From NCBI GenBank assembly GCA_013152815.1, contig JAADFO010000016.1, forward strand, positions 1-42,504: 42,504 nt of DNA, read 5' to 3'. Made by a program: the position numbers and the translations under genes. Below the pieces are notes generated by a model. The model was given only the letters and a program-made list of their open reading frames with translations, had not been told where the DNA came from and did no database searches. Origin of the DNA: Nanobdellati archaeon (GTDB lineage: Archaea; Nanobdellota; Nanobdellia; Woesearchaeales; JAADFO01). Below, one piece after another: positions 7,734 through 33,128 of this stretch (position 1 is the first letter of the stretch; each line of letters opens with the position of its first letter).

Positions 7734-8887
7734 GCAGACGAAGACGGGCAGAAGTGAAGGGAGAAACGATGAAAGGAACAAGGAAAAGGATGAAGAAAAG
7801 GATGAGGGAAGGGCTGAGGGAAGGAAGGAAGGGTTTGCCAGGTTCCCTGCTGTTCGTCGTTCTCCTACTGTTCGTCATTCCCCTGCTGCTCACGGCATCC
7901 CCTGTATCGGCCATACCCGTCCCACAGGGCATCGATGGGTTTGTCCTGGGCATGGACAACATCACCCAGGCACCTGCAGGGACGGCTTTCAGCATCATCA
8001 ACCTGGAGACAGGAAAGGTGATAAACGGCTTCACCGGCATGGGCAACCTTCCTGGAAGGTATTCAGCAGCGGTCCAAGGAACGACAGGTGACAGGATCCT
8101 CATCACCGCAAGCACAGGACAACACATGGCCAACAGGACCGTCAACCTGACCGGGTCGATGCACCAGGTCAACCTGTACCTCAATCTCTCGACCTGGCCG
8201 GATGACGGAAAGAACCATGCCAGACCGAGCATAGCGGTATCGGCACGAAATACTCCTGCCACCGATGTGACAGACCAGACACAGGAGACAGGAAAACGCC
8301 GAGTCCCCCAGACCATGACAAGCCATGCGGTCCCCCAGATCATGATCATCGACGGGTCTGTAGCGAGCGGGAGCGGGATACCCGTCGATGCGGGAGAGGA
8401 AGCAGGAAACCAGGACATCATCATCACCAACCTCAGGACAGGCGAACAGGTAACTGCAGAGAACAGGAAGGCCTATCGTGGAACGACGAGGCATACAGGA
8501 TTCCGTGCAGCCATCAGAGGGAGGACAGGCGATCAGCTCACGCTCACCTATCAAGACAGGGAATCATCACCCCTGCCCTTCGGCAAGGACCAGGCCGGCA
8601 TCGTGATCCAGACGGAAACAACGGCCGACAACGACAAAGAAGGTAAAGAAAACAGCGGCAGGGCAGCAACAGACAGACAGAGGGCAACAGGGCTTCTGGT
8701 CACCGGATGGACAACAGTCCAGCAGGAACAGATTTTGGGAGATGACAACAAGCGTCCGGAAGGAAAGAGACATCCCCTCAAGAGCGCGACATTCTTCCTT
8801 GGCCTGGTCCTCCTGATAAGTGTGGTGTTCTCCTGGAGAACTCCGAAGAAGACAGAAACAGAGCAGACGAAGCAGGACCGACCATGA
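7730..8887 (+). CDS. Secreted, C-terminally membrane-anchored protein with two small beta-rich domains
   Basis: ATG at 7730 overlaps the upstream stop (ATGA). Long basic n-region, then a hydrophobic signal (LLFVVLLLFVIPLLLTASPVSA), a PVPQGIDGFV...GD-x-I module present twice, and a C-terminal TM (FFLGLVLLISVVFSW) with a charged tail. The ORF-track start at 7619 lies inside the upstream gene. Confidence 0.8.
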   Translation: MSRRRRAEVKGETMKGTRKRMKKRMREGLREGRKGLPGSLLFVVLLLFVIPLLLTASPVSAIPVPQGIDGFVLGMDNITQAPAGTAFSIINLETGKVINGFTGMGNLPGRYSAAVQGTTGDRILITASTGQHMANRTVNLTGSMHQVNLYLNLSTWPDDGKNHARPSIAVSARNTPATDVTDQTQETGKRRVPQTMTSHAVPQIMIIDGSVASGSGIPVDAGEEAGNQDIIITNLRTGEQVTAENRKAYRGTTRHTGFRAAIRGRTGDQLTLTYQDRESSPLPFGKDQAGIVIQTETTADNDKEGKENSGRAATDRQRATGLLVTGWTTVQQEQILGDDNKRPEGKRHPLKSATFFLGLVLLISVVFSWRTPKKTETEQTKQDRP

Positions 8888-10671
8888 GACAAGGCAGACT
8901 TTCGGGGACAACCCTGGCAGGCATGACAGGTATCGTCCTTATGTTGGTCGTCCTGTCTACCTTCATCGCAGCCCAACCACCGACACCCCATGGCATCGCC
9001 GGCACCATCTATCTCATAGACGGCACCACCCAGGTCCCGCTTGGTTCTCCCTTCCGGGTGAACGACTCCACGTCAGGAGATCTTGTCCATGATGTGACAA
9101 GCGTCCCTGTCCCTGGACTGAGCGGACGGTATTCGGTCAGCATCGATGGCCTTGACGGTGACTTTGTCATCGTCCAATCCTGGAACGACAGCCATTACGG
9201 TGAGACCAACCTCACCCTGATAGGAGACATGACCGGAATCGACGTCATCCTCAACAGGACCAGAGAACCAGAGGCCAACGTGACCATTGTCTACCCCGCT
9301 AACGGCGCTTCGTTCAACACCAACGAAACCTGGCAGCTCAACGTCAGCTATGGAGTGCTGGGCGGCCAGGACGGCATCGGATGCAACGCGACGTTGACCA
9401 TCGCAGATACTGGTGTCTTCGATCTTGCCACCGGAGAATCCGCGGTGAAAGAGCTCGGCGGAGTGGCTCTGGGAGAGACGGTCAACATCTCCTATAATAT
9501 CTCTGGCAAGTCTGCAGGGACATCGAATTTCACGGTCAACGGCATCTGTTCCAACAGCAGGGTCAACTTCGCAGGAGAGAGCAACGATACGGTATTCGGC
9601 ATAACAGCGACAGGACAGACAATACCGCAGGTGCAGTTGATAAGACCGGCGAACAACACGCTCAACATAACGACCCATAACATCACCTTTACCTACCAGG
9701 TAAGCCATCCTTCTCTCCTGAACAACTGCACACTTATCCTCGATGACCAGGTGAACATGACCCAACTCGCTCCGGATACCGATGTCGAACAGAACTTCTC
9801 TGTCCTCATCCCCAATGGGCAATACAACTGGACGGTGAACTGCACAGACATCCTGAACGTTTCCGGAACAGCCGACCCCTATAATCTCACGGTACGGGTC
9901 TATCCTCCTGCAGTCATTTCCCTGAGCGTGGATACGCCCATCGATCTCCAGACAGGAACCGCAACGATCGTAACCTGTAACGCATCGGTACGGGATGAGA
10001 ACGGCATCAGTGACCTTGCGTCGGTCAATGCGTCGCTGTTCAATCAGGGAGTCTCATCGCCACAGGACACAGACAACAAAAACTGGCATTATACCAACAG
10101 CTCCTGCTCAGCCTTCCAGACAGGGGTTTTCACTGCAAACTACAGCTGCACGTTCCCTGTCGAATACTATGCCCGCAACGGCAGCTGGGCGTGCAACGTG
10201 ACCCTCAGCGATTCAGGAAACAACATCAACAGCTCAGTCCAGAGCACAACGCTGAACGCGCTGATAGCACTGAGCACAGATGCAGCACTCGACTTCGGCA
10301 ACGTCCTGGCAGGGCAGGTCTCAAGCGAGATGAACATCACCATAACCAACACCGGAAACATCGGGTTCAACATCTCCACCAACGGCTATGGATTGAACCC
10401 AAAAGACAATCTCAGCCTGGCCTGCGACAGCGGACAGAACATCAGTGTCACCAGGATGAGATATGCGCCGCAGCCAGGAGTCGGCTATGGAATCAAGACC
10501 AACCTCACCGCAGACATAGCGCTTATCAATAACATCTTCTTTCCCAAGAGAACCGATGAAGCAGGATATGGAAGCGACAGGAACAACACCTTCTGGGCTG
10601 TCGGTGTGCCGACAGGAATGAAAGTGTCCTCTTGCAACGGAACAATTGTCCTTTATGCTACGATAGCCTGA
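8884..10671 (+). CDS. Secreted multidomain protein: N-terminal PPTPHGIAG module, Ig-like domains and a C-terminal 'family B' Cys-rich domain
   Basis: ATGA overlap and signal peptide. The C-terminal ~250 aa (CNASVRDENG...YTNSSC...CTFPVEYYARNGSWACNVT...LDFG...TNTGN...GYG...CNGTIVLYA) aligns by eye with 12792-13748 and 20091-21080. Confidence 0.85.
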   Translation: MRQGRLSGTTLAGMTGIVLMLVVLSTFIAAQPPTPHGIAGTIYLIDGTTQVPLGSPFRVNDSTSGDLVHDVTSVPVPGLSGRYSVSIDGLDGDFVIVQSWNDSHYGETNLTLIGDMTGIDVILNRTREPEANVTIVYPANGASFNTNETWQLNVSYGVLGGQDGIGCNATLTIADTGVFDLATGESAVKELGGVALGETVNISYNISGKSAGTSNFTVNGICSNSRVNFAGESNDTVFGITATGQTIPQVQLIRPANNTLNITTHNITFTYQVSHPSLLNNCTLILDDQVNMTQLAPDTDVEQNFSVLIPNGQYNWTVNCTDILNVSGTADPYNLTVRVYPPAVISLSVDTPIDLQTGTATIVTCNASVRDENGISDLASVNASLFNQGVSSPQDTDNKNWHYTNSSCSAFQTGVFTANYSCTFPVEYYARNGSWACNVTLSDSGNNINSSVQSTTLNALIALSTDAALDFGNVLAGQVSSEMNITITNTGNIGFNISTNGYGLNPKDNLSLACDSGQNISVTRMRYAPQPGVGYGIKTNLTADIALINNIFFPKRTDEAGYGSDRNNTFWAVGVPTGMKVSSCNGTIVLYATIA

Positions 10672-10860
10672 TCCAGCATCACTAAGACTTCTTCACAGAT
10701 TTGATGACCAATTCTCCTCTCTTTCGTCGTTCCTTGTTCATAACACACAGATTCAAGGAGAAGGAGAGCGTCTTACAGATGACTTTCTTGTTTTGAGCCT
10801 GTTTCCCGTTTTCTTTCAGGAAAAAACGAGAATTCACGGTTTTTTTTTCTTGACAGATAT

Positions 10861-10880
10861 GGAAAGATTTATATATTAAT
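10861..10880 (+). promoter_or_regulatory. Archaeal BRE/TATA promoter for the first family A cassette
   Basis: GGAAAGA-TTTATATA in an AT-rich 440-nt intergenic region, downstream of T-tracts; GAGGTG SD at 11099-11104. Confidence 0.6.
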
Positions 10881-11112
10881 ATATGAATTAGTATACCGCT
10901 GTATTAAAAATTATATTGATAGCCTAAAAAAGGGATAAATATATGAAAACATAGAAGGATAGCGTGTTTTCATATACTGGCACTGTGCCAGAGAAGCCAA
11001 TCGGCTTCACAAGGAAAACAAGCGAAAGGACGAACGAAGACGTGAACCAATCCGACGAAGAGGATTACCAACGGAAAAGATCACACAAGCAAATGAGCGA
11101 GGTGTATGCGAA

Positions 11113-11949
11113 ATGAAAGGGAGCATCCGTAATCGAAGTATACTGACTGTGTCAACCATGTTGGCGCTGGTCATTCTCAGTTATTTTGCCTTTGCCGTGC
11201 CGACACAGCCCACAGCTCCAGAGACACTGGACAGACGAGGAGACAGTAGGCTGGACCCGACCAACTATCCTGCGAAATCATTGGAAGCAGAAGCAGGAAA
11301 CATCACCGGAGTCTATATATTCGCGACCACCCAGACCAAGACCTGGGCAGGTTTCTACGGAAACATCAGCGGCAACATCACCTTGGACGACGCCGTGGGG
11401 AATACGTTCTATGATTGGGAAGTTGCCGAACCGAACGGAGAGGTCTACGCAGCCAACGATACGGTGAGCGACTGGAGCACCATCAGATGCATCAACTTTT
11501 CGGCAACCCCTGGAATGACCGTCAACTATGATGGAGGATTAGCAAGCACCGTCGACAATAATCCGCTCAACCTCTCCCTGTTGGAGAACGGCTTCGGCAT
11601 CACCTGGAACGACGAGGATGGTGTCAACGAGACCTTCAACACAGGAACCCATGATGGCTTCTTCGTGGGAACCATCAATATCACGGAAAACAGCTGCATG
11701 ACGACAGATACCTATCAGGACAGCCACTCCGCGGGAGATGCATTCCAGGAAGTGCTCCTGGAGGTCAACAACAGCAACACGGTCATCTTCAGCACCATCA
11801 TAGAGAACAGGGATGCGACCAACGAGACCGATGTGCGCGGCTACAACGGAGCACGACACGACTTCCAGATGCTTGTCCTGGAAGACGGCCACGACGGCCC
11901 AGAAGCTGACCTGACCACCACCTACTACTTTTATGTGGAGCTCGACTAA
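11113..11949 (+). CDS. Secreted family A subunit 1 (putative filament/surface subunit, EDGH subtype)
   Basis: Signal peptide ending FAFA-VPTQPTAP; TKTWAGFYGNISGNITLDD, GEVYA, one Cys pair, DFQMLVLEDGH, C-terminal YYFYVELD. Confidence 0.9.
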   Translation: MKGSIRNRSILTVSTMLALVILSYFAFAVPTQPTAPETLDRRGDSRLDPTNYPAKSLEAEAGNITGVYIFATTQTKTWAGFYGNISGNITLDDAVGNTFYDWEVAEPNGEVYAANDTVSDWSTIRCINFSATPGMTVNYDGGLASTVDNNPLNLSLLENGFGITWNDEDGVNETFNTGTHDGFFVGTINITENSCMTTDTYQDSHSAGDAFQEVLLEVNNSNTVIFSTIIENRDATNETDVRGYNGARHDFQMLVLEDGHDGPEADLTTTYYFYVELD

Positions 11950-11957
11950 GGCGAGCT

Positions 11958-11986
11958 CTCTTTTTTTGCTGTTTTTTTCTTTTTTA
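11958..11986 (+). terminator. Oligo-T archaeal terminator after subunit 1
   Basis: Three successive T runs (TTTTTTTT-GCTG-TTTTTTT-C-TTTTTT) immediately after the stop codon. Confidence 0.6.
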
Positions 11987-12009
11987 CAGCATGGACGAGG
12001 TGCGTGGAC

Positions 12010-12774
12010 ATGACCAAAAAAAGAACGCCGGCTGCGGGAAGGTTCCTGCAGGCGATCATCATCACCATCTTTCTTGCCAGTGCGCTCATCAGCATCGTGC
12101 AGGCGCTCCCCAGCGGGCCCACATTCGAGTTCATCTCCGAGAGCGAATCTCCTGTGCAGTCATCGACCCAGGACACGAACAGTTCCCATTCAGGCGGGAA
12201 GATCATCGTCGCCAACCTCAACGTGACCCAGCAGGATTCCCACTGGAAGGCCTACGTCGGAAACGTTTCAGGAAGGCTCGTCTTGGAGAACGCCAACAAC
12301 TACTCCATCTTCGAATGGACCATCACCGAAGTGACCGGAGAGGTCTATGCCACCCGAGGGAACTCAGTGAACTGGACGACGGTGGAATGCGCCAACATCA
12401 CTCATGTTGATGCCGAAGAGCTGGCCATGAACCATACTGCCAGCTACACTCCTGACGACAACATCACCAACACGTTCAGCACCGCGAACAATCACAGCAG
12501 CTTCTTTGCAGGGGCGAGCACCATCACCCAGAACAGCTGCAATTTCACCACCCAGACCTTTGTCAACGGTTCCCAACAGGTCGGAAGCACCTATTTCAAG
12601 GAGATATTGCTCTATGACGGCACCAGCATCGTCTATTCGACCTTGATGGAAAGCGACCGATACGGCTATGACACAGGATCGACCTATGACTACCAGATCC
12701 TGGTCGCCGAGAGAGGCGATCCGGAATTCTCCGGACAGAGCACGAACTATTACTTTTACGTCGAGTTGCTGTAA
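12010..12774 (+). CDS. Secreted family A subunit 2 (HWKAYVGN subtype)
   Basis: GAGGTG SD at 11997-12002; signal ending VQA-LPSGP; HWKAYVGNVSGRLVLEN, GEVYA, Cys pair, DYQILV, YYFYVELL. Confidence 0.9.
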   Translation: MTKKRTPAAGRFLQAIIITIFLASALISIVQALPSGPTFEFISESESPVQSSTQDTNSSHSGGKIIVANLNVTQQDSHWKAYVGNVSGRLVLENANNYSIFEWTITEVTGEVYATRGNSVNWTTVECANITHVDAEELAMNHTASYTPDDNITNTFSTANNHSSFFAGASTITQNSCNFTTQTFVNGSQQVGSTYFKEILLYDGTSIVYSTLMESDRYGYDTGSTYDYQILVAERGDPEFSGQSTNYYFYVELL

Positions 12775-12791
12775 GGGCAGCATGCATAAAG

Positions 12792-13748
12792 ATGACATCG
12801 AGGTACTTCGGTCCCTCTGGACCGATAGCCATGGGAGCATTGATAGTGCTGGCCACTGTCCTACTGTTGACTCCGTTCTTTTTCTCGCTTGGAGAGGCCG
12901 CGTACTATGACAACACCACGGTCCTGACCCTCCTGAACGTGACCAATGTGGCTCCGACAATATCCAATGTCCTGGTCTATGACAATGACAGTCTCGTCTC
13001 CGGCAACATCATCCTGAACCAGGGGACGACAGACATCGTCTACTGCAATGCCACCGTTACCGACCTCAACGGCTATCTCGACATCATCGACTACAACGCC
13101 ACATTGTTCCATGAGACCACGACAGCCGGAGCCGCAGACCAGAACATCGACCATTACACCAATGCGACCTGCATGAACAGCACCATCAGCGGGAACATCA
13201 CATCCATAAACGTCCAGTGCACCTTCAATGTGTGGTTCTATGCCAACAACGGAACCTGGACCTGCAATGTCACTGCTTTTGACGGCAACAGCATCAATCA
13301 TAGTTCGGGTACAGAGATCATCGACCCCCTGTTCGCCCTCGACCTGAACACGAGCGTCATCGACTATGGAGAACTGGCTCCCGGTGATTCATCTGCCGAT
13401 GATGTCCCTGTCCGGGTGACCAACTTCGGGAACATGGACATCAACGTGTCGGTCGAGGGCTATGGGGTCACCCTTCATGACGGACTTGCCATGGACTGCA
13501 TCCTGGGAGACATCAATGTGAGCTATGAGAAATATGATGTCCAGCCGGGCCAGACCATCGCCAACATGTACAATCTCACCGAAAACCCCCTCATCAACGG
13601 TGTTCCGGGGCTCACCATCCCGAAGAACACGGTCGACGGTTCGAACTCCACCAACACCACGTTCTGGAAGATGCATGTCCCCTATGGAAATCCCCTAAAA
13701 GGATTCTGCAACGGAACCGTCCTGTTCTCAGCCATCGGCCCTGTGTAA
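12792..13748 (+). CDS. Secreted family B Cys-rich protein (putative minor/adaptor subunit)
   Basis: Signal peptide; YYDNTTVLTLLNVTNVAP, CNATVTDLNG, CTFNVWFYANNGTWTCNVT, IDYGEL, TNFGN, GYG, C-terminal CNGTVLFSA. Confidence 0.9.
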   Translation: MTSRYFGPSGPIAMGALIVLATVLLLTPFFFSLGEAAYYDNTTVLTLLNVTNVAPTISNVLVYDNDSLVSGNIILNQGTTDIVYCNATVTDLNGYLDIIDYNATLFHETTTAGAADQNIDHYTNATCMNSTISGNITSINVQCTFNVWFYANNGTWTCNVTAFDGNSINHSSGTEIIDPLFALDLNTSVIDYGELAPGDSSADDVPVRVTNFGNMDINVSVEGYGVTLHDGLAMDCILGDINVSYEKYDVQPGQTIANMYNLTENPLINGVPGLTIPKNTVDGSNSTNTTFWKMHVPYGNPLKGFCNGTVLFSAIGPV

Positions 13749-13826
13749 ATATATCCTCTGCAGTAAAGAGAACGACAGAGACAGGATATGCAGAGGACGG
13801 GACAGTCCTGCAGCAACCTACCTCTT

Positions 13827-13858
13827 TCTTATTCTTTATATCTCTTATTCTTTATATC
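13827..13858 (+). repeat. Tandem 16-nt duplication in an intergenic region
   Basis: TCTTATTCTTTATATC at 13827-13842 and 13843-13858; pyrimidine-rich and possibly a terminator. Confidence 0.8.
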
Positions 13859-13965
13859 GTTCAGATGCTTATATCATTTAGATACCGTACCGTTCAGATA
13901 CATACAGATCGAATGAACCTCCCGAAAAGAGGCATCCCTTTGTCTTGCATGGATCTTGCATGAAG

Positions 13966-14035
13966 GAACCAAACATTTATATACTGATTCTTACATGGAA
14001 TAAACTTATGCTGAAAATTGCAATATTTGTGCAAT
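13966..14035 (+). promoter_or_regulatory. TATA box plus downstream palindrome ahead of the tandem-HTH gene
   Basis: CAAACA-TTTATATA (TATA ~13976-13983); ATTGCA-N7-TGCAAT at 14017-14035. Confidence 0.5.
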
Positions 14036-14089
14036 AGATACTTACATAGAATAAATATCCACTGACATAATATAACAACAGGGACAACA

Positions 14090-14599
14090 GTGTCGCCAAA
14101 ATCCGGCAGAAGAGAGGACCTTGCAGCGAGATTCAGCGTTTTCCTCAGGCAGGAATATGGAGTAGAACTTGACCAGCTACTCGAAGGGCTGCAGGAACCA
14201 GAGAAAGAGACACCAGAAGTTCCGGTCTCCATCTTCTCGACCACCTTAAGCACGTTGGAGACGGTCATCAAGTACCAGAGAGAGGTCAGAGGCCTGAGCT
14301 TCTCGGCCATCGGCCAGATCCTGAAGAGACATCCTGCTTCTCTGACGACATCCTACAGACGGTCCCTGAACAAATACCCCGACAGGTTCACCCGAACCAC
14401 TTTCAAGGATTCTGTCATCAGGATACCGCTTTCCATCTTCACAGAGAAGCTCGCCCCTTTAGAAGCGCTCGTATGGTTCCTCAGCCAGGACCTGGGACTT
14501 CGGCTCTGTGACATCGCGAGAATCATCCATATAGACCAGCGGACAGCATGGACGGTCAGAGCGAGGGCAAGGAAAAAACAGAAGGAGGCGGTCCTATGA
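14090..14599 (+). CDS. Tandem-repeat HTH DNA-binding protein (sigma-70 region 4-like HTH, two copies)
   Basis: Two internal repeats: VPVSIF...LETVIKY...GLSFSAIGQILKR...SYRRSLNK and IPLSIF...LEALVWFL...GLRLCDIARII..DQRTAWTVRARARKK. GTG start; the stop overlaps the next ATG. Confidence 0.75.
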   Translation: MSPKSGRREDLAARFSVFLRQEYGVELDQLLEGLQEPEKETPEVPVSIFSTTLSTLETVIKYQREVRGLSFSAIGQILKRHPASLTTSYRRSLNKYPDRFTRTTFKDSVIRIPLSIFTEKLAPLEALVWFLSQDLGLRLCDIARIIHIDQRTAWTVRARARKKQKEAVL

Positions 14600-15336
14600 A
14601 TCCTGCCCTGACGAGAAAGCAGGCACGCCGCCTCCTCGGCTGGATCATGGTCCTTCTCCTGGTGAGCCTTTCCCTCGGGAACGTCCTTTCCCAGAGCCAG
14701 CCTGCAGGTCCGAACATCATATCCCAGACAACTGAGACAGCCACACCGAACGCTGCACTGAACATCACCACAGCAGGAGGGACCATAACGACGATGGTAT
14801 TGAACGGGACCACCCAGAATCCCCACTGGAAGGCCTATGTCGGAAACGTGACAGGAAGGCTGGTGCTCCAGGACGGTGCGAACTACAGCATCTACAACTG
14901 GCAGCTGACCAACCCTTCAGGAGAGGTCTATGCATCACGCAACAATACCGTGAACTGGACATCCATCAGATGCGCCAACTCGACCCAGATAGCGACTGAA
15001 GAGACCAACATGAACCACACGGCAAGTGCTGTCGACAGCATCGCCAACACCTTCACCGATTCCACCCACCAGGAGTTCTGGACAGGAGGCACCCAGTTCA
15101 CTGCGAACGAATGCGGATTCACCACAGCAACCTATGTGAACAACACCAACCAGAGCGAGCTGTTCCAGGAGATAGCTCTCTACGACGGGTCCTCGATCGT
15201 CTATGCGACCATCATCGACCCGAATACCGCCGGTTTCGACTATGGACGATATGATTTCCAGCTCATCGTACCCGAGAAAGGATGGGAAGGGCCGACCTCC
15301 TCAACACCCTATTATTTCTGGGTCGAACTGGTATAA
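14596..15336 (+). CDS. Secreted family A subunit 3 (HWKAYVGN subtype)
   Basis: GGAGG SD and ATGA overlap at 14596; signal ending VLS-QSQPAGP; HWKAYVGNVTGRLVLQD, Cys pair, DFQLIV, YYFWVELV. Confidence 0.9.
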   Translation: MNPALTRKQARRLLGWIMVLLLVSLSLGNVLSQSQPAGPNIISQTTETATPNAALNITTAGGTITTMVLNGTTQNPHWKAYVGNVTGRLVLQDGANYSIYNWQLTNPSGEVYASRNNTVNWTSIRCANSTQIATEETNMNHTASAVDSIANTFTDSTHQEFWTGGTQFTANECGFTTATYVNNTNQSELFQEIALYDGSSIVYATIIDPNTAGFDYGRYDFQLIVPEKGWEGPTSSTPYYFWVELV

Positions 15337-15443
15337 GAAAAGCACAGATAGAAAAGCAGATGAAAGATACGCAGTCAATAAAAAGAACTACTTAAATAAT
15401 CATTGAAATAGAGAAAGACACCATTTCTATGACGAGAGGAGCT

Positions 15444-15537
15444 TACTGATTAAGTATTTGCTTAACTTGATTAAGTTACGAAGTTATGGAGATAATGATG
15501 TTCAGCATTTCATAAAGAGAGAAAAATTTATATATAA
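15444..15537 (+). promoter_or_regulatory. Operator-like palindromes and TATA upstream of wHTH regulator 1
   Basis: ACTGATTAAGTA at 15445-15456; TAACTT-GATT-AAGTTA at 15463-15478; GAAAAA-TTTATATA at ~15521-15534. Confidence 0.6.
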
Positions 15538-15688
15538 GTCTCCATATAAGTAGAGTAAGGTGGAGAATCGTATATTAATTGCTTAATGAGGTAGTCTGGA
15601 GGCTGCAAAGTGCAGAAGATGATATCCTCGAAGCAGGCAGGAAGGCCAAAGACCATCCCCCGGGGATGGAACAGTGGATGTGGAAGAC

Positions 15689-16345
15689 ATGGACCTGGAA
15701 ACACTCTTTACAACCTCAAAATGGGAGATTCTCGAGAAGATTGCACAGCAGCCGATGAGCCCGCTCCAGCTTTCTTCATCACTGCACACCTCTCCTGCAA
15801 ATGTGAGCCAGCAGGTCAAGCTGCTGCAGATCGCCGGCCTTCTTGAGAAAGAGAAGGTCCCCACAAGGGAGACCGGCAAACCGAGAGCCCTGTTCTCGCT
15901 CAAGGATGATTTCTCCTATCTCATCAGCGTGGCAAAAGAGGGCGCAAGAAAAGGGCTCATCCCGACAGACGCGAAGAAGAGGCTCATCCTCAACTCCTGG
16001 ATGGCCGACGATGCAGAACTGGAGCAGATGGCCTTCGACTTGGCCACGGTCTTTCGGGAGAAGTTCGACGCCGTCGGCGGCGTCGCCTGGGACCCGACCC
16101 ATCATCTCCTCTTCCTGGTCATCGACGACAAAGAAAGCGCAGGGGCAGAGATCGAGAGCATGAGAGACAGCACCCTACGGAACCATCATCATCTGCAGGT
16201 GCTCGACAGGAAACGGTTCATCTCCCTCCTTGAGGAGAGTGCATCTGACCAGGAGAACAGCAGAGAGAACCAGGACAACCCGATACAGCTTCTTGTGATC
16301 GACAGCCACATGGCAGAACAGATACGAGACCAGCACGGAAGATAG
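15689..16345 (+). CDS. ArsR-like winged-HTH transcriptional regulator, paralog 1
   Basis: MDLETLFTTSKWEILEKIAQQPMSPLQLSSSLHTSPANVSQQVKLLQIAGLLEK...GKPRALFSL is a typical wHTH. The start was chosen by alignment with paralog 2. Confidence 0.85.
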   Translation: MDLETLFTTSKWEILEKIAQQPMSPLQLSSSLHTSPANVSQQVKLLQIAGLLEKEKVPTRETGKPRALFSLKDDFSYLISVAKEGARKGLIPTDAKKRLILNSWMADDAELEQMAFDLATVFREKFDAVGGVAWDPTHHLLFLVIDDKESAGAEIESMRDSTLRNHHHLQVLDRKRFISLLEESASDQENSRENQDNPIQLLVIDSHMAEQIRDQHGR

Positions 16346-16360
16346 AAGAAGGAAACGGGG

Positions 16361-17158
16361 ATGCAGCGGATGGACAGAAGTTCAGCGATGATGAAAGGGA
16401 AGAAAAGGGAGACGATGAAAGCTTCCTTCCTGCTTCTGGTCGGCATGTTTATCCTGGTCTCCGCATCGTTCGACGCAGCGGCAGATCCTGTCGCTCCGAC
16501 GACGCTCTCAGAGATCTCAAGCTCGACCAGGACATTTCCCGGAGGGAACAAGACCACCAACGCGACAGCAGGATATCTTACCGAAGTGAAGATAGAGGGC
16601 ATCGCCGTCGTCACCGAAGGCTGGCAGGGCTACTACGGCAACATCAGCGGGGAAGTGATCCTGGACGACGCTGACAACAATACGCTCTTCTCCTGGAACC
16701 TCATCTCGCCGGGAGGGGAGATCCTGGCCATACGGAACAGCAGCGTGGACTGGTCCAGCGGACAGGTCAGCTGTCCTAATACCACCCACATCAGCACCGA
16801 GAACACGCTCATCTTCCCGGGGATCTATGGCGACGACACCGATAACCTCACCAACACCTTCAACGACACGACCCATCCTGCTTTTTCCATCGGAAGCAAC
16901 AGCTTCTCAGCAGATAAGTGCAACTATTCTCTCGCTACCTATGTCAATGACAACGCCGACACGGCAAGGACCTTCAATGAGACCCTGCTCTATTCAGAGA
17001 ACACCAAGACCATGATCTATGTGGGACTGATCAATCCGAAACAGGAAGGGTTCAAGAGCGGCACCGACAAGCATGACTTCCAGATGCTGGTCGGAGAGGA
17101 CGGACACGGCAACAATGCCACCACCAGATACTTCTTCTTTGTCGAACTCAATCCATAG
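16361..17158 (+). CDS. Secreted family A subunit 4 (EDGH subtype)
   Basis: Signal ending DAAA-DPVAP (start could be 16415); EGWQGYYGNISGEVILDD, Cys pair, DFQMLVGEDGH, YFFFVELNP. Confidence 0.9.
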   Translation: MQRMDRSSAMMKGKKRETMKASFLLLVGMFILVSASFDAAADPVAPTTLSEISSSTRTFPGGNKTTNATAGYLTEVKIEGIAVVTEGWQGYYGNISGEVILDDADNNTLFSWNLISPGGEILAIRNSSVDWSSGQVSCPNTTHISTENTLIFPGIYGDDTDNLTNTFNDTTHPAFSIGSNSFSADKCNYSLATYVNDNADTARTFNETLLYSENTKTMIYVGLINPKQEGFKSGTDKHDFQMLVGEDGHGNNATTRYFFFVELNP

Positions 17159-17274
17159 ATCAGAGGGCATTCCCTGACCTGAGATCGATTGGCCGACCTG
17201 ATCGATCGGCAGGCTCGTTCTTGAAGCGGATGATGGCGCAGACGTATCTGAAAAGGATCGAAACACACCGTTTC

Positions 17275-17441
17275 ACTGATTAAGTAATCATTAAAGTTAA
17301 TTAATCACACAATCATATCACTTCTCGACGACAGAAAAGTCACGATAAGAACAGACAATACTTAAGCAAGTATTGAAATTATTAAATCTGATTTCTTAAT
17401 TATTGACAGCAATTAACAAATAATCGAAATATTTATATATT
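17275..17441 (+). promoter_or_regulatory. Operator-like palindromes and TATA upstream of wHTH regulator 2
   Basis: ACTGATTAAGTA at 17275-17286, overlapping TGATTA-AG-TAATCA (17277-17290); CAATACTT-AAGC-AAGTATTG at 17356-17375; CGAAATA-TTTATATA at ~17425-17439. Confidence 0.6.
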
Positions 17442-17596
17442 AGGGGCACCAAGAGTACATCAAGGTATGAAATTGTATACTGGGAGTGGACTTCCAAAAA
17501 CCCCTGGTCTTTCAGCCTGACGACGATTTTCCACCGACAACGTCCCTGGTCTGAACGAAGCATCAGACAGCATAGCGACAACAGAGGCCCACAGTA

Positions 17597-18247
17597 ATGG
17601 AACTAGAGACCCTCTTCACAACATCCAAATGGGAGATCCTGGGAAAGATCTCTCAGAGACCGGCCAGTCCTCTCCAGCTTTCCGCCCAACTCTCCACCAC
17701 CATAGCCAACATAAGCCAGCAGATACGGCTCCTGGATGTGGCCGGGCTTCTCGACAAGAAGAAGATCTCCACCAGGGAAAGCGGAAAGCCCCGCACCCTG
17801 TTCTCTGTGAAGGACGATTTCTCATACCTTATCCTGGTCTCTGCAGAAGGGGCAAAAAAAGGGCTCATCAAGGTCAGCAGGTCGAAACGGCTCATCATGA
17901 ACGCCTGGCTGAGCAAGGAACAGGAGACAGAATCCATCGCCTACCGCGTGCACGAACAGCTTGCCGACCAGCTCGGCTCTGTCAGCGCGGTGGTGCATCA
18001 CCGGAAGAAAAGAGAGCTCATCATCGTCTCGGATAGTCAAAAGGAGCTCGCACGGGACATCGAGAGGCTGAGAAAGAGCGTGTCAGGTCTCACCCAGAAG
18101 GTGAGGACCATGGACACCAAGGAATTCGTCTCTTACCTCAGGGCCCTTCAGGTGACCGACATCAATGATCTCTTCACGGTCCTTCTCCTCGACCATGACA
18201 TCACAGGAAGATTGCAGAGGAGCGGAAAAGAGGAAAGGGAGACATGA
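17597..18247 (+). CDS. ArsR-like winged-HTH transcriptional regulator, paralog 2
   Basis: MELETLFTTSKWEILGKISQRPASPLQLS...NISQQIRLLDVAGLL...GKPRTLFSVKDDFSYLI; the N-terminal half is very similar to 15689-16345. Confidence 0.85.
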   Translation: MELETLFTTSKWEILGKISQRPASPLQLSAQLSTTIANISQQIRLLDVAGLLDKKKISTRESGKPRTLFSVKDDFSYLILVSAEGAKKGLIKVSRSKRLIMNAWLSKEQETESIAYRVHEQLADQLGSVSAVVHHRKKRELIIVSDSQKELARDIERLRKSVSGLTQKVRTMDTKEFVSYLRALQVTDINDLFTVLLLDHDITGRLQRSGKEERET

Positions 18248-18386
18248 GCAAGAGACGATCGGAGAGAGGAAGATGAGATTCAACCACAGCATAAGCAACG
18301 CATTCGTAGCGGCTATGGAACAGCGGACCTTCCAGCGGCTGAAAAGTCTTTCCCTGGACCGCAGACAAACGAAAAGGTGATGGTGT

Positions 18387-19133
18387 ATGAAAAGAAACGA
18401 ACTGATGATAATCCTGATGGTGGCGGTGACCGTGATGACTGCCTATACGGTCATGGCAGACCCGAACATACCTGCGGTGCTCAGCCAGCTCTCTACGAGC
18501 ACCCGGACCATCGATGGTGCGAACAAGACCAATGACGCTCTGGCAGGGAACCTGACAGAGATCGCCATCGATGACACCAAGGTCACCCAAGGGTGGCAGG
18601 GCTACTACGGAAACGTCTCAGGGACCATCGTCCTCGACGACGCCCTCAACAACTCCATGTACACCTGGGACCAGAGTTCAGCGAGCGGAGAGATCTATGC
18701 ATCGAGGAACTTCAGCATAGACTTCTCATCGGGACAGATCGTCTGTGCTAACACAGCCAACGTGAGCATCGAGAACACAGCCATCTTCCCGGGAACCGCG
18801 GGAAATGATGCTGATAACGTCACCAACACGTTCAGCCAGACCACCCATCCGGAGATCGTCGTCGGATCGAACACCATAACGGCAGATTCCTGCTCATATA
18901 CCCTGTCGACCTATGTCGATGATGCAGCAGACGCGACCAGGACCTTCAACGAGACCCTGCTCTACTCCAAGAACATGAACAGCATCATCTATACAGCGAT
19001 CATAGCCCAGGACGCTGAAGGGTTCAAGTCCGGGACCGACAGCCATGATTTCCAGATGCTGGTCGGAGAGGACGGGCACAGCGGCGACACGGCAACAACG
19101 ACGTATTACTTCTACGTCGAACTCAGCGCATAA
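18387..19133 (+). CDS. Secreted family A subunit 5 (EDGH subtype)
   Basis: GGTGA SD; signal ending TVMA-DPNIP; QGWQGYYGNVSGTIVLDD, Cys pair, DFQMLVGEDGH, YYFYVELSA. Confidence 0.9.
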   Translation: MKRNELMIILMVAVTVMTAYTVMADPNIPAVLSQLSTSTRTIDGANKTNDALAGNLTEIAIDDTKVTQGWQGYYGNVSGTIVLDDALNNSMYTWDQSSASGEIYASRNFSIDFSSGQIVCANTANVSIENTAIFPGTAGNDADNVTNTFSQTTHPEIVVGSNTITADSCSYTLSTYVDDAADATRTFNETLLYSKNMNSIIYTAIIAQDAEGFKSGTDSHDFQMLVGEDGHSGDTATTTYYFYVELSA

Positions 19134-19230
19134 GGATACTGAACAGAAAAAAAGACCGAAAGGTAAGAACGAAGAGAACAAGCGAAGAGAACAGGAACAC
19201 AGAACAGAAAACGAATGACAACGTGAACGG

Positions 19231-19983
19231 TTGATGAGGACGCGGTCAGAGCTTCAGATAGGAATAGTGACAGTGATCGGGCTAGCTGTCGTCCTCAGCA
19301 TCGCCGGCAGCCTTGTATGGGCTGCACCGGGCAACCCGGCCGGATTCGAGGTGGTCGGATCGTCGAGACGGAACACGACCTTCCCGACCGCGTCGGTGGA
19401 GGCGATCGCCGGAAACGTGACCGAACTGAGGATAACAAGCACCACGACGACCAAGACATGGGCAGGATACTACGGGAACGTCACCGGGACCATCGTCCTC
19501 GATGACGCCCTGAACAACTCCATGTTCAGCTGGAACCTTGATGAAGCAGCAGGAGAGGTCTATGCGGCCAGAGGATCGGTGGACTTCAGCAGCGGAAATA
19601 TCATCTGCGCCAACGCAACGCACATACAACAGGAGGAGAACAACTTGAGTGTCAGCCCAACAGCGAAGGACGGAGTGAACGAGACCTTTGCCTATACGAC
19701 CCATCCTGCCTTCATGGTAGGCGATGCGAGCTTCAGCAGCGACCAATGCGGGTACACGGCATCCACCTATGTCAACGATGGCGTGGACAGCTCGAGGACC
19801 TTCAACGAGACCCTGCTCTATGACAAGGCGGACAATCTCACGGTCTACATGGCGCTCCTGACGAGCAAACAGGACGGATTCAAGATCGGGACCGACAAGT
19901 ACGATTTCCAGATGCTGGTCGGAGAGGACGGCCACGGCAACACCGACACGACGACCTATTACTTTTATGTCGAACTGCAGTGA
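19231..19983 (+). CDS. Secreted family A subunit 6 (EDGH subtype)
   Basis: Signal ending LVWA-APGNP; TKTWAGYYGNVTGTIVLDD, Cys pair, DFQMLVGEDGH, YYFYVELQ. Start is TTG 19231 or ATG 19234. Confidence 0.9.
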   Translation: MMRTRSELQIGIVTVIGLAVVLSIAGSLVWAAPGNPAGFEVVGSSRRNTTFPTASVEAIAGNVTELRITSTTTTKTWAGYYGNVTGTIVLDDALNNSMFSWNLDEAAGEVYAARGSVDFSSGNIICANATHIQQEENNLSVSPTAKDGVNETFAYTTHPAFMVGDASFSSDQCGYTASTYVNDGVDSSRTFNETLLYDKADNLTVYMALLTSKQDGFKIGTDKYDFQMLVGEDGHGNTDTTTYYFYVELQ

Positions 19984-20090
19984 AAGGCTGAAAAAACCAG
20001 ACAAAAAGCAAGAAAGCAGACAAAAAGCAGAGACAGGACAGGAAATCAGGGAACAATCACAGACGACCAGGAGGAAGTGAACAGACCAAG

Positions 20091-21080
20091 ATGAGAACCC
20101 GACAGACAGGCACCGAAAAGCAGGAAAAGAAGAGATACAGGACACAGCTCTTCCTGACCCTGGGACTTCTCCAGCTCACGCTCCTCGTCCTGCTCCTCCT
20201 TCCCAGCCCTCAGACGGTCATCGGCCAGACCTACTACTCCAACACCACGGTCCTCACAAAACTCAACATCAGCAACGCAGCACCCATCGTCTATAATGTC
20301 TTCATCTACGACAATGATTCTCTGGCCGGAGGCGACATGATACTGACTCCCGGGACCACGGACAGGATATTCTGCAACGCCACGGTCAACGACAGCAACG
20401 GCTGGACCGACGTCAACATATCCAACGGAACCCTCTTTCATGCAGGGAATTTCAGCGACCCCAACGACAACAATGTACGCTATGAGAACACCTCCTGCAG
20501 CATCATGCAGAACAACGGATTTGCCGACAGCGCTCTGGTCACCTGTTCGTTCGAGGTGTACTTCTACGCCGATGCCGGAGCGTGGAACTGCAGCATCGAA
20601 GCAGAGGACAATTCCAGCGTCTCAGACCAGGCCTTCGCCAATTCCACCAAGACCATCGCCCAGCTCTATGCCATAGACCTGGACACCGCAGTGGTCGACT
20701 ATGGGGTCCTGAACGTGACTGAGGTCTCGAGTCCTACGACTGTCAACATCACCAACGCAGGGAACATGCACATCAACCTGAGCGTGGAAGGCTATGGGTC
20801 ATCGCTCCATGACGACCTCGCCATGAACTGCTCCAAACAGAGCACCATCGCTGTCGGTCTGGAACGCTATGCTCTCACAGCAAGTGCGAACTGGAGCGTC
20901 AACATGACCCCTTTGACGAGCAACCCGCTCACGAACGGCATCGGGAACCTTACTATCTGGCAAAACGAGGACGATCTTGGGAATTCGACCAACACGACCT
21001 GGTGGGCGATCAAGGCACCCATAGGAGCCGAGTCAGGCGCCTGCAACGGGTCATTGGTGTTCTCAGCGATACCTGCTTAG
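20091..21080 (+). CDS. Secreted family B Cys-rich protein (paralog of 12792-13748)
   Basis: Signal peptide; YYSNTTVLTKLNISNAAP, CNATVNDSNG, CSFEVYFYADAGAWNC, VDYG, TNAGN, GYG...LAMNC, CNGSLVFSA. Confidence 0.9.
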   Translation: MRTRQTGTEKQEKKRYRTQLFLTLGLLQLTLLVLLLLPSPQTVIGQTYYSNTTVLTKLNISNAAPIVYNVFIYDNDSLAGGDMILTPGTTDRIFCNATVNDSNGWTDVNISNGTLFHAGNFSDPNDNNVRYENTSCSIMQNNGFADSALVTCSFEVYFYADAGAWNCSIEAEDNSSVSDQAFANSTKTIAQLYAIDLDTAVVDYGVLNVTEVSSPTTVNITNAGNMHINLSVEGYGSSLHDDLAMNCSKQSTIAVGLERYALTASANWSVNMTPLTSNPLTNGIGNLTIWQNEDDLGNSTNTTWWAIKAPIGAESGACNGSLVFSAIPA

Positions 21081-21159
21081 GCAGGAGAGACATCGGCAAC
21101 AGGCAACACAATCAACGGCAACAACCAATAACGATCGACAGGAACAGAGAACAATCACC

Positions 21160-21957
21160 ATGAAACGAACCAGACCTGAGGTGGGACCAATGAAATGGAT
21201 CAGAATAGGGAGAGGCTTCACGCTGAGCCTCGTCATCGGGATATTTTTGCTATCGCTCTTCGCGATCTGGACAGTCGCCGATCCCGTCGGACCCACCCTC
21301 AACTACATCTCCCACTCGTCTGGTTCCTCTGCCACCGGTTCCCTGGCAGACAACAGCTCCCACACAGGAGGTGTCATAGCGAAGATGAATCTTGATGTCA
21401 GGCAGCAGAATCCCCACTGGAAGGCCTATGTCGGAAACATATCAGGCAACCTTGTATTGGAGGACGGGTTCAACTACTCAATATATGAATGGTCGCTCAC
21501 ATCGCTGCAGGGAGAGGTCTATGCCACCCGGGCATCGAGCATCACCTGGGGCAGCCTGACCTGCGCCAATATCAGCCAGCTGGATATCGAGATGGCAGCC
21601 ATGAACCACACACCCAGCTATACGCTGGTGGACAACATCTCAGCCACGTTCGATGACGATGCCAACAGCCACGCCCAGTTCTATGCCGGATCGACAAATA
21701 TCGCGGCCAACAGCTGTGATTTCTCCACCAACCTCTATGCCAACGATACTGCCCAGAGCGCGGGAGGTTCAACATGGGAAGAGGTCGTCCTGTTCCAGCA
21801 GAGCAACAATGCGACGGTCTACACGAGCATCATCGACGAGAACAACTACGGCTACGCCAACGGCTCGTTCTTCGACTATGAGATCCTCTTGCCAGAGAAA
21901 GGGGAGCCTACCTTCACCGGTGCGACGCCATATTACTTCTATGTGGAGCTGGTCTAG
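21160..21957 (+). CDS. Secreted family A subunit 7 (HWKAYVGN subtype)
   Basis: Signal ending WTVA-DPVGP; HWKAYVGNISGNLVLED, GEVYA, Cys pair, DYEILL, YYFYVELV. Confidence 0.9.
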   Translation: MKRTRPEVGPMKWIRIGRGFTLSLVIGIFLLSLFAIWTVADPVGPTLNYISHSSGSSATGSLADNSSHTGGVIAKMNLDVRQQNPHWKAYVGNISGNLVLEDGFNYSIYEWSLTSLQGEVYATRASSITWGSLTCANISQLDIEMAAMNHTPSYTLVDNISATFDDDANSHAQFYAGSTNIAANSCDFSTNLYANDTAQSAGGSTWEEVVLFQQSNNATVYTSIIDENNYGYANGSFFDYEILLPEKGEPTFTGATPYYFYVELV

Positions 21958-22004
21958 GGAAGGGATTAGATTGTTGGACAAAAGAGAAGCGTGATGAGCG
22001 AAGG

Positions 22005-22415
22005 ATGAAGAAGCATCATCCCAAGAAGGGAGCAAGACCAAGACCGGCAAAGACAGGAAGACAGGCTTATTCCCGCTATTCCCTCTGGATCGGTGTCTTT
22101 CTTCTCATCATCATATCGACGCTGCAGGGCTGCGCGACGACAGTGACCAAGGAAGAGGCAGCGACGACCGCCCTGCAGTTCGTCCGCGGACGGGTGAGGT
22201 TCTTCCCCAGCGGAGAGAACAGCTCCTCATTGGTGCAGACGACGGTCAAGCTGAGCCCGGACAGCTATGAAGAGACCGGTTTCTATGTCATCATCCTCCA
22301 CGCAGAAGCGACCAAGGACAATAAGACTGTCAAGAACGATTTCACCATCGACGTGGACAAGGGGACAGGGGTTGTCCTTCGGGTGAACGGACAGCCTGTC
22401 GGAAAAGCGCCCTGA
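22005..22415 (+). CDS. Small lipoprotein, PepSY-like fold possible
   Basis: Basic n-region, hydrophobic stretch and LQGC lipobox; VTKEEAATTALQFV...IDVDKGTGVV resembles PepSY-type motifs. Confidence 0.7.
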   Translation: MKKHHPKKGARPRPAKTGRQAYSRYSLWIGVFLLIIISTLQGCATTVTKEEAATTALQFVRGRVRFFPSGENSSSLVQTTVKLSPDSYEETGFYVIILHAEATKDNKTVKNDFTIDVDKGTGVVLRVNGQPVGKAP

Positions 22416-22429
22416 TGGCTTCTCTTCCT

Positions 22430-22463
22430 CTCTGCCCTTCTTCTCTGCCCTTCTTCTCTGCCG
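22430..22463. repeat. 13-nt tandem repeat (~2.6 copies) in a convergent intergenic gap
   Basis: CTCTGCCCTTCTT at 22430-22442 and 22443-22455, plus a partial third copy; pyrimidine-rich and a possible terminator. Confidence 0.6.
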
Positions 22464-22516
22464 TTCAGAAGGTGAACAGGCTCAGGCCCGCTGCTGATCA
22501 GTCATCCGGCGACGTC

Positions 22517-25240: not shown

Positions 25241-25921
25241 TTAGCTCTTCTTTCTGGAAACCCTGGTGATGAAAAAGACGACTCCGGCAAAGACAAGCAG
25301 GGACAGGGCAATGGCCCAGAAGGGAAAGCTTGGCGTGTGGGAAGGATTCTCCTGACGCGGCTGCCCGCGCCCGCCCTTCCTGTCGGCATGAGCTTCCAGG
25401 ACCAGCTTGAGACGTCGCTGTGTACCGGGCTGCCAGGAAACATTCCCAACAGCGACGGCCGTCTTTCCGTCAACGGTGAACAGGACCTGCTGGCCCGGCC
25501 GCATGACCGGCAGTGCCGAGGAAGCAGGAGGATAGTCGAGACAGCTGAGGAAACCGAACAGCCCTGTCTTCTGGACAACGAAACGGCCGCAGGGTCTCCC
25601 TTCCTGATCGGACGCGACCACTTCAGTATGCGCCGGAGCCGGCTGTCCATCGATATAGACGGTCCCGTAGAAATCGGTGAACGCCACGGGGCCCTGGGCA
25701 GAGACAGGAGGGGACATCAGGGAAAGCATCGCCAGCAAGGAAAGCAACGCAGGCAGGGAAAGCATCGCCAGCAAGGAAAGCAGGGGGTTGACTTTCGCTT
25801 TCATGGCACTCACTCGGATAGCACCCATTCTGACAGCACGCATAGCACGCACCCTGGCCTGTCGCATCATCCCGCTTTCCTTCTTCATCTTATCGTCCTT
25901 CTCCATGTTGTCTGTCTCCAT
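25241..25921 (-). CDS. Small secreted, C-terminally TM-anchored protein with the FYG module
   Basis: TDFYGTVYIDGQPAPAHTEVVA..GRPCG.F.....GLFGFLSC is homologous to the N-terminus of the 905-aa neighbour; C-terminal TM followed by RKKS. Confidence 0.8.
   Translation of the reverse strand: METDNMEKDDKMKKESGMMRQARVRAMRAVRMGAIRVSAMKAKVNPLLSLLAMLSLPALLSLLAMLSLMSPPVSAQGPVAFTDFYGTVYIDGQPAPAHTEVVASDQEGRPCGRFVVQKTGLFGFLSCLDYPPASSALPVMRPGQQVLFTVDGKTAVAVGNVSWQPGTQRRLKLVLEAHADRKGGRGQPRQENPSHTPSFPFWAIALSLLVFAGVVFFITRVSRKKS
25718..25782. repeat. 29-nt direct repeat (36-nt period) duplicating the signal-peptide h-region
   Basis: CAGGGAAAGCATCGCCAGCAAGGAAAGCA at 25718-25746 and 25754-25782; encodes LLSLLAMLSL twice. 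Confidence 0.9.
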
Positions 25922-26689: not shown

Positions 26690-26828
26690 GTCAGAAACTA
26701 GGATTATAAAGGTTTCGACCCCTGAAGCAGAAGCAGGGAAGCAGGATGACATACATGTAGCAACCGGGTGATAGTGACTAAAGTTTATAAAATAGCATGA
26801 CGCTGGCAACTATGGTTAGGGGGTCATA

Positions 26829-32800: not shown

Positions 32801-33128
32801 ATCCGCTGCAGAGGATGTTCCATGGCGGCGTGGAAGAGATCAGCTGCCCAGGACCCAGCGAACCCAGGCCGAACCCGTTGGAACCCACGGAGAGCTGCTT
32901 GTCAGATACCAGAGAGACCGTGAGGTTGTTGATGGTGGTGTTGCCGTCGTTCCGGACATTGATGGCCAGGGAAAGGGCACTGTCCGGTCCCGGAGAGCAG
33001 ATGGTGGATGAGGAGAGATAGAGCATCTCTGTGGAGACGGCGCCTGAAGGCAAGGCCATCATCAGGACAAACAGCAGGGACGAGAGGAGGAAGAACGGTA
33101 CTGTGGCTGCTGAGGTCCTTCGTCTCAT
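29893..33128 (-). pseudogene. Frameshifted ~1,077-aa surface protein (CARDB-like, Ig repeats, FN3, coiled region, TM, cytoplasmic helical repeats)
   Basis: The 33128 ORF reads protein-like to ...SLSYRFDDAPSTH. Another frame continues TVSLEGFGSSFSGYAILPDNSARRIGSFSFSATSTQGIVGSQIESGRLFIVDGESPG straight into the MPDGFKVT of the 31839 ORF. The shift lies at (GT)n 32009-32015. FN3 motif YYYRVAAVDQAGN. Confidence 0.8.

Follow-up and report, generated by a model that had tools for sequence, protein, structure and literature searches.

A locus of paired exported protein families in a Woesearchaeales archaeon, a candidate for a cell-surface assembly

Background

What is built by a locus which gives a single archaeon ten exported proteins, belonging to two families without a name? 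The question is raised by contig JAADFO010000016.1 of a Nanobdellati archaeon (assembly GCA_013152815.1), of which positions 1-42,504 (in nucleotides, nt) are the window that we have analysed. The genome has 1.49 Mb in 76 contigs and is 90.8% complete. An initial annotation, made from the letters of the window, had distinguished a family A and a family B in positions 8884-22415 and had taken them for subunits of a filament or of another surface polymer. The explanation which we favour, tentatively, is that the locus codes for a lineage-specific, Sec-exported, N-glycosylated and hetero-oligomeric assembly of the cell surface, to which adhesins are docked. It is supported by two clades of family A which accompany each other, a conserved order of A and B genes and the use of both families as terminal modules of giant proteins.

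Results and discussion

Two families of exported proteins

The list of open reading frames (ORFs) of the window has seven genes of family A and three of family B, all of them on the + strand and at the places given by the initial annotation. Profiles of both families, searched against the whole 1.49-Mb genome, recovered exactly these seven A and three B copies, with E values from 1e-95 to 4e-68, and no further copy outside the locus; the observation is therefore not due to chance. The A genes are A1 (11113-11949, 278 amino acids, aa), A2 (12004-12774, 256 aa), A3 (14548-15336, 262 aa as called), A4 (16361-17158, 265 aa), A5 (18387-19133, 248 aa), A6 (19231-19983, 250 aa) and A7 (21160-21957, 265 aa). 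The true start of A3 is probably 14596 rather than 14548. B2 (12792-13748, 318 aa) and B3 (20091-21080, 329 aa) stand alone; B1 (8884-10671, 595 aa) is a fusion, in which the B profile places the B domain at residues 341-593.

In their alignment the seven A proteins have 32 invariant columns, with 28-41% identity to A1. Every motif listed in the initial annotation was recovered: P-x-x-P (P33 and P36 are invariant), W-x-[GA]-[YF]-[YV]-G-N, GE[VI][YL]A, two invariant cysteines, D[FY][QE]x and the terminal Y[YF]F[YFW]VEL, after which 1-2 residues remain. Six cysteines and the ending C-N-G-[TS]-x-x-[FL]-x-A are common to the three B domains. The two families are unrelated to each other (hhalign probability 9.1%). 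Among homologues, exactly two cysteines are found in 212/217 mature A proteins and six in 24/24 B proteins; 198 of the 217 free A homologues have exactly one residue after the VEL strand.

A single N-terminal hydrophobic segment, with none after residue 60, was found by a Kyte-Doolittle scan in 217/217 A and 24/24 B homologues, as expected for the exported proteins without anchor that had been proposed. This segment may be either a cleaved signal peptide or an uncleaved signal anchor. The seven A proteins all have small residues at -3/-1 directly before x-P-x-x-P, and position -1 is most often Ala in the homologues with P..P in their first 60 residues (133/201: 53/92 in clade A-II and 80/109 in clade A-I, which are described below); the cleavage site is one read from the sequence. 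No class III signal, characteristic of type IV pilins, was found in the seven A proteins. In 7/7 of them the predicted cleavage site comes after the hydrophobic stretch, so it is not a type IV pilin signal, as had already been concluded. Elsewhere in the genome there are four T2SSE-type ATPase matches, all outside the locus, which may belong to a separate type IV system.

Potential N-glycosylation sites (sequons) reach 3.2-4.3 per 100 aa in A and 5.7-6.7 in B, and 6.4 in the giant protein coded at 162-7733, versus 0-1.2 in eight cytoplasmic proteins of the window. The density of sequons, the fixed number of cysteines and the single N-terminal hydrophobic segment indicate that A and B are exported glycoproteins.

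Two clades of family A and a conserved gene order

For comparison we used twelve regions of 6-20 kb from eleven other genomes, with crude ORF calls which were scanned with the A and B profiles. A maximum-likelihood tree of 45 stand-alone A proteins divides them into two clades with 100/100 support. Clade A-I, with 22 rows, has the motif W-K-A-Y-V-G-N and includes A2, A3 and A7 of the window; clade A-II, with 23 rows, has W-x-G-Y-Y-G-N and includes A1, A4, A5 and A6. Both clades are present in 10/10 of the genomes which have stand-alone A genes. Judged from the tree and from this co-occurrence, A-I and A-II are ancient partner clades, always found together.

The order of the genes is also conserved. 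In 6/6 other loci the gene directly 5' of a stand-alone B is an A-I gene, with gaps from -8 to +21 nt; in the window, 17 nt separate the stop of A2 from the start of B2. A gene with two helix-turn-helix (HTH) domains is followed by an A-I gene in 7/8 of the loci holding one, either overlapping or abutting, and a winged-helix gene of the ArsR type is followed by A-II in 9/9 cases. Giant ORFs of 1812-3890 aa lie 5' of the A cluster in four of the loci (L032, L034, L039 and L041). A synteny search with hidden Markov models across DPANN genomes had been suggested, and the A/B gene order is indeed conserved across the loci that we fetched. The link between A and B seen in the initial annotation is strengthened by these tight gene pairs, and a functional connection of the two families is supported at the level of gene order. 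That annotation had missed the two A clades, the HTH regulators specific for each clade and the wider extent of the locus.

These data bear on a first alternative, in which A proteins do not polymerise at all. They would be modules directed at a host, either for binding (lectins, for instance) or for catalysis (such as envelope hydrolases), and would be released free or borne as C-terminal heads by giant proteins; the paralogs would widen the range of targets and B would be an accessory binding protein. The presence of A-I and A-II together in all ten genomes, with fixed roles in gene order, is unexpected for redundant effectors, and the tight coupling of A-I to B in six out of six loci suggests a fixed stoichiometry. 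Other observations given below are more favourable to this alternative.

A and B as terminal modules of giant proteins

Long proteins with an A domain were examined among the best 150 of 1266 representatives of the family (see below). In all 13 of them, which have 468-2359 aa, the A domain extends to the last residue or to the one before it. It is likewise the extreme C-terminus in 4/4 long ORFs of the fetched loci. The fused A domains are of the A-II type, as judged by their motif. Their passengers include immunoglobulin-like (Ig) repeats, Laminin_G_3, beta-helix and DUF2341 domains. The B domain is found in the same position, the extreme C-terminus, in B1 of the window and in one protein of 752 aa. 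The locus lies amid giant Ig-repeat proteins, and A or B is the C-terminal module of adhesin-like giants, which bears out the cell-surface interpretation of the initial annotation. In adhesins a long stalk protein often bears its functional head at the C-terminus, and the fusions also agree with binding or catalytic modules.

A stretch similar to the Nup98-96 autopeptidase S59 is found in 7/13 of the long A proteins. It is above the cut-off of 28.4 bits only in P0272 (31.0 bits) and in the locus protein L038 (30.4 bits). The combination of an S59-like stretch with an A-II end suggests self-cleaving surface proteins. The proteins of this kind are P0272, P0318, P0332, P0337, P0366, P0387 and L038:2316-4205; they have 600-800 aa, with the S59-like stretch about 150-200 residues before the A-II end. 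In locus L037 the gene preceding the S59-like/A-II protein has a SO2946-like_C domain. Just 3' of the 2359-aa protein which ends in an A domain, L036:8939-10852 codes for a KaiC-type ATPase fused to a DUF5752 stretch. DUF5752 is also found in cytoplasmic 'mid' proteins adjoining the cluster in L032 and L034.

Distribution of the families

Family A is a large one. A protein search with A5 gave 908 relatives at E<=0.001 from 1234 candidates, and a search with A2 gave 486 from 713. All the named relatives are labelled 'hypothetical protein' and come from Candidatus Woesearchaeota, Nanoarchaeota or 'archaeon'. The organism itself is of the Woesearchaeota type and thereby a DPANN archaeon, as had been proposed. 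A profile of the seven paralogs was compared with a library of 1.84 billion clusters at 50% identity: its matches number 1266 representatives with E<=0.001, of which 896 remain at 1e-10 and 473 at 1e-30. Pfam and NCBIfam have nothing above cut-off for A or B, and the best match of the A profile to sequences of the PDB is a ferritin with E 0.44. Literature searches on Woesearchaeota pili, on donor strands in DPANN and on Woesearchaeota S-layers or adhesins gave no account of either family. The initial annotation had recognised no named family for A or B, and nothing in these searches contradicts it. By its sequence relatives A is a new, unnamed family, large and bound to its lineage.

An even sample of 401 genomes of the phylum, all of them at least 90% complete, shows A matches in 109; usually there are several copies, in clusters. 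This tally includes the genome studied here and genome G243, which is flagged as unpublished and was used only for this purpose. Out of the 109, 105 are our own genome or belong to the same order, and four to the same class. Inside families the distribution is patchy, with 4/42 genomes in one family (f12) and 8/29 in another (f4). B matches are found in 83/401 genomes. Both families are present in 55 genomes; 54 have only A, 28 only B and 264 neither one. Genomes that are kin to each other do not count as independent samples. A patchy presence of this kind is to be expected of accessory genes for interaction with a host, a further point for A as binding or catalytic modules.

The same distribution is relevant for a second alternative, a two-dimensional S-layer made of A-I/A-II pairs with B or the membrane-anchored neighbours as stalks. 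The two families have features that an S-layer would require: they are exported, rich in sequons and unanchored, and A comes as two partners. In archaea an S-layer is as a rule made of one or two proteins (PMC5744192). An essential wall protein should be more uniform than A, which is confined to 109/401 genomes and is patchy within families, with the caveat that divergence could hide A relatives among the 401 genomes. Nor are seven paralogs, regulators of their own and a role as the C-terminal module of adhesins usual for S-layer proteins. Two-protein S-layers (such as SlaA/SlaB) resemble the locus in having two exported glycoproteins encoded together, one of them perhaps a stalk; they differ from it in that the A and B subunits are small, patchy in distribution and without a C-terminal anchor, with many paralogs. 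We consider an S-layer improbable.

Predicted structures

The AlphaFold2 model of A5, obtained from an alignment of 103 rows, has a predicted local distance difference test (pLDDT) of 90.6 and a predicted template modelling score (pTM) of 0.83. It contains some 15 strands and, besides these, three short helices; at the start of the mature protein 45 residues are extended, yet they are confidently placed. An A model of the ESM Atlas (pTM 0.79) has as neighbours only unnamed clusters of Woesearchaeota or Nanobdellota, with TM values of 0.79-0.85, and the next row has 0.29. With Foldseek the best E is 0.37 in the PDB and 0.17 in the viral library BFVD. The top 50 hits include a TasA fibre, a cannula-like tube, a chaperone-usher subunit and legume lectins, none of which scores as a match; for the TasA fibre 8aur_A, E is 1.4 and TMq 0.11. 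Such a result is an absence of match, not a proof of a different fold. The structure searches gave no Ig-like match for A, and no enzyme or lectin fold.

For B3 the AlphaFold2 model (pLDDT 87.6) has an N-terminal helix (residues 8-36), then a disordered linker, and after it a pair of complete beta-sandwich domains. Its structural matches are generic Ig-like ones, and in the ESM Atlas B finds unnamed or generic Ig clusters, one of which is half viral (TM 0.67). As modelled, B is a tandem Ig-like protein.

A comparison of folds with TasA, AbpA, CanA and pilins had been proposed, and its outcome is divided: B is made of complete Ig-like sandwiches and A finds no match. The beta-sandwich formerly attributed to A is not supported: no structure of a beta-sandwich, a jelly-roll, TasA, a CanA-like protein or a pilin was matched by the model, confident as it is. 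The predicted fold of A is recognisable as none of the known ones; an experimental structure would probably define a new fold.

We can now weigh the proposal of binding or catalytic modules. It gains from the Glu, Asp and His positions kept in both A clades over a deep divergence, and from the monomer fold of A, which is complete and confident. It loses from the lack of any enzyme or lectin fold in the structure searches and from the last strand, which in 198/217 homologues stops one residue short of the C-terminus, a position that points to a structural contact. Taken with gene order, fusions and distribution, we find this proposal somewhat unlikely.

The models also touch on a third alternative, in which the cluster would belong to a mobile element, such as an integrated virus, with A and B as its structural glycoproteins. 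HTH regulators interleaved with structural genes would fit such an element, as would the half-viral cluster among the neighbours of B. No integrase, packaging ATPase or tRNA was found in the window, its G+C is even, the best BFVD match of A has the poor E value given above, and the gene order is conserved beside cellular giant surface proteins in many genera. We have rejected this alternative on the grounds of the missing genes, the even G+C and the conserved cellular gene order; it is highly improbable.

A predicted complex of A-I and A-II

A complex was predicted for A1 of clade A-II (residues 29-278, alignment of 100 rows) and A2 of clade A-I (residues 35-256, alignment of 117 rows). Three runs gave interaction scores (ipSAE) of 0.27, 0.42 and 0.49, with a median of 0.42; all three controls gave 0.00. 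The runs share at least 88% of their contacts, with a pLDDT of at least 76 for the partners. In the calibration of this score, the pass mark is reached by 116/157 solved complexes and by 2/215 mismatched pairs; values up to 0.60 include only 18 of the 157 solved complexes, together with both passing mismatches. No similar complex has been solved from which the prediction could have been copied. This test of an A1-A2 multimer, which had been suggested previously, weakly supports the binding of A-I to A-II in the models and is silent on polymerisation.

The proposed assembly

The hetero-oligomeric assembly that we favour could be formed in the following way. Signal peptidase I would cleave the exported proteins, and A-I and A-II would then bind each other. 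Together with B they would build, on the cell, a fibre or lattice of repeating units. Giant adhesins would join it through their A-II or B module, which would take the place of a free subunit, and three membrane neighbours described below (orf422, orf226 and the polytopic orf905) would tether the assembly to the cell. The HTH regulators would switch which A paralogs are made. A strand-exchanged filament takes a minor share of this explanation. In a more specific form, A-I and A-II would be alternating subunits of a self-assembling fibre or lattice found only in DPANN archaea of the Woesearchaeales type, with an orphan fold, into which giant adhesins and self-cleaving S59-like proteins plug in by a C-terminal A-II or B module, and which would serve for attachment to a host; this form is unlikely in our opinion.

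Several observations weigh against a hetero-oligomeric assembly. The monomer models of A and B look complete and self-contained, and no donated strand is required. Acidic residues and a His are conserved in both A clades: from the sequences they could belong to a metal site and just as well to a catalytic one. The score of the A1+A2 complex lies in a band where predictions are more often wrong than right, unless the pairing is already likely. No chaperone, usher, sortase or dedicated signal peptidase was recognised in the 35 ORFs of the window and 30 neighbour ORFs. Finally, A is present in only 109/401 genomes and 54 of these have no B match, therefore B is not obligatory, at that search sensitivity. 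The probability which is left over from all these explanations goes to something that we have not considered.

Comparison with known surface systems

The nearest working analogies would be the filaments of the TasA superfamily and the Pam pilus. The TasA superfamily comprises TasA of B. subtilis, the archaeal bundling pili AbpA/AbpX, the Sulfolobus 0406 threads and the Pyrodictium cannulae CanA/CanX. It resembles the A locus by a Sec signal peptide without membrane anchor, by glycoprotein subunits of 20-28 kDa with several paralogs per genome and by an assembly outside a single membrane without a dedicated secretion machine. According to PMC12518558, cannulae assemble without a chaperone and signal peptidase I often adjoins genes of the superfamily. 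The differences are substantial. Peptidase_M73 (PF12389) matches 0/7 A proteins at E<=0.1, and a six-frame search of the genome gives 0 matches at E<=0.01, with the B. subtilis control being found. A Pfam scan of the 35 window ORFs has no signal peptidase family next to the locus. Unlike the TasA superfamily, the A locus has no match to Peptidase_M73, no fold match and no adjacent signal peptidase; it has two obligate partner clades, its conserved strand is C-terminal and not N-terminal, and its subunit is also a C-terminal module of giant proteins.

The newly described Pam pilus of bacteria of the candidate phyla radiation (CPR) has membrane-anchored chaperones with two Ig domains and an RbmA-like anchor (PMC13278184). 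Chaperone-usher and Pam systems differ from our locus in several respects: A is not Ig-like by any search, the Ig folds of B are complete with no match to PapD in Pfam, the A/B locus has no usher and the organism is an archaeon. The resemblance to parts of the Pam pilus is a generic one of fold, through B.

Cohesin-dockerin docking, as in the cellulosome, offers another comparison. There a small conserved module forms the extreme C-terminus of many different large exported proteins, and free-standing partners are encoded nearby. It has no relation of sequence or fold with A, whose module is much larger, about 215 aa, and whose partners are putative.

Regulators and promoters

Three regulator genes are found among the A and B genes, all of them on the + strand. 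The two-HTH gene (14090-14599, cluster c2) is translationally coupled to A3: its stop overlaps the probable start of A3 in an ATGA at 14596-14599, with GGAGG at 14584, 8 nt upstream. An orthologue of this gene matches Sigma70_r4_2 with 35.8 bits versus a cut-off of 25.7. The two winged-helix genes are paralogs which share one BLAST cluster (c1): one lies at 15674-16345, 5' of A4, and matches HTH_5 with 23.1 bits versus a cut-off of 22; the other lies at 17597-18247, 5' of A5, and has weak matches to HTH_34 and HVO_A0114. On the basis of gene order, A-I and A-II each have their own co-transcribed HTH regulator.

A box similar to a B recognition element (BRE) followed by TATA is repeated in four intergenic copies (repeat family D12), at 10862-10893, 13962-13993, 15521-15552 and 17426-17457. 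Its core AAAnATTTATATA, which we take to be an archaeal BRE/TATA, is invariant in 4/4 copies. The boxes lie 128-251 nt upstream of A1, of the two-HTH gene and of both winged-helix genes. Their positions define the transcription units, and suggest four of them: A1-A2-B2, two-HTH-A3, winged helix-A4 and winged helix-A5-A6-B3-A7. A scan for sigma-70 promoters gave a background level, 11 found versus 9.2 expected. At 11937-11959 a hairpin followed by a T-run overlaps the stop codon of A1; it could attenuate read-through into A2-B2. Repeats for phase variation were also considered and discarded: in 8800-22500 the inverted repeats are short and imperfect, and none flanks a promoter.

Neighbouring genes

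The conserved locus is wider than 8884-22415 and comprises at least 162-26809. At its 5' end is the giant Ig-repeat surface protein (162-7733, + strand), with 2523 aa, 161 sequons and the Pfam domains Big_13, Big_7 and DUF2341. It is followed by orf422 (7619-8887, + strand), which has a signal peptide and a C-terminal transmembrane segment (hydrophobic residues 69-102 and 385-408) and no Pfam match. The stop of orf422 overlaps the start of B1 by 4 nt, and its sequence makes it a possible membrane tether. After A7 there is orf136 (22005-22415, + strand), a small exported protein with a single hydrophobic segment in residues 25-48. Its sole relative is a weak match in L031 (E 2e-5) and its participation in the A/B system is doubtful.

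Three genes on the - strand come next: orf905 (22517-25234), orf226 (25241-25921) and c3 (25973-26809). The first combines a signal peptide, an Ig-like ectodomain and a Cys-rich region with 3-4 transmembrane segments and a cytoplasmic tail; its Pfam matches are Big_9 and He_PIG, and its hydrophobic segments are found at 643-745. The second has a signal peptide and a C-terminal transmembrane segment. The third is a conserved exported protein of about 225-278 aa. Homologues of c3, orf226 and orf905 directly follow the A/B cluster in L031, L032, L039 and L042, those of c3 with E values from 3e-44 to 9e-23. Orf905 is a conserved neighbour and a candidate for a membrane platform. The product of c3 is weakly similar to the C-terminal domain of the giant (6900-7733; BLASTP E 0.001), and may be a third type of module, both free and fused.

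Two more surface or membrane proteins on the - strand have homologues beside A/B clusters: 28473-29741 in L034 (13665-14855, E 3e-67) and 29893-31839 in L034 and L042 (E 1e-14 to 7e-17). The island of surface proteins therefore runs to about 31.8 kb. The ORF at 29893-31839 overlaps the one at 31350-33128 (- strand) by about 490 nt, and the tail of the upstream ORF looks out-of-frame and of low complexity; the overlap may be due to a frameshift or to a mis-called end.

At the end of the window, 37338-42504 is a block of genes for nucleotide sugars and glycans: NTP_transferase, a dehydratase/epimerase, RmlC-like and RmlD-like proteins, a DegT aminotransferase and a glycosyltransferase of family 2 (GT2). 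These genes may supply glycans for the sequon-rich proteins of the A/B locus. In L031 a GT4 gene lies within the A cluster.

Conclusions

The locus has a fixed anatomy, with two partner clades, a tandem-Ig partner, fusions to adhesins and dedicated regulators. If A-I and A-II do form a polymer with an orphan fold, the surface polymers of archaea would be of three kinds, this one as well as the type IV and the TasA-like filaments. To our knowledge Woesearchaeota have no cultured and imaged representative. Little is known of the means by which DPANN archaea stay attached to their hosts, for which this locus provides a concrete and widespread candidate.

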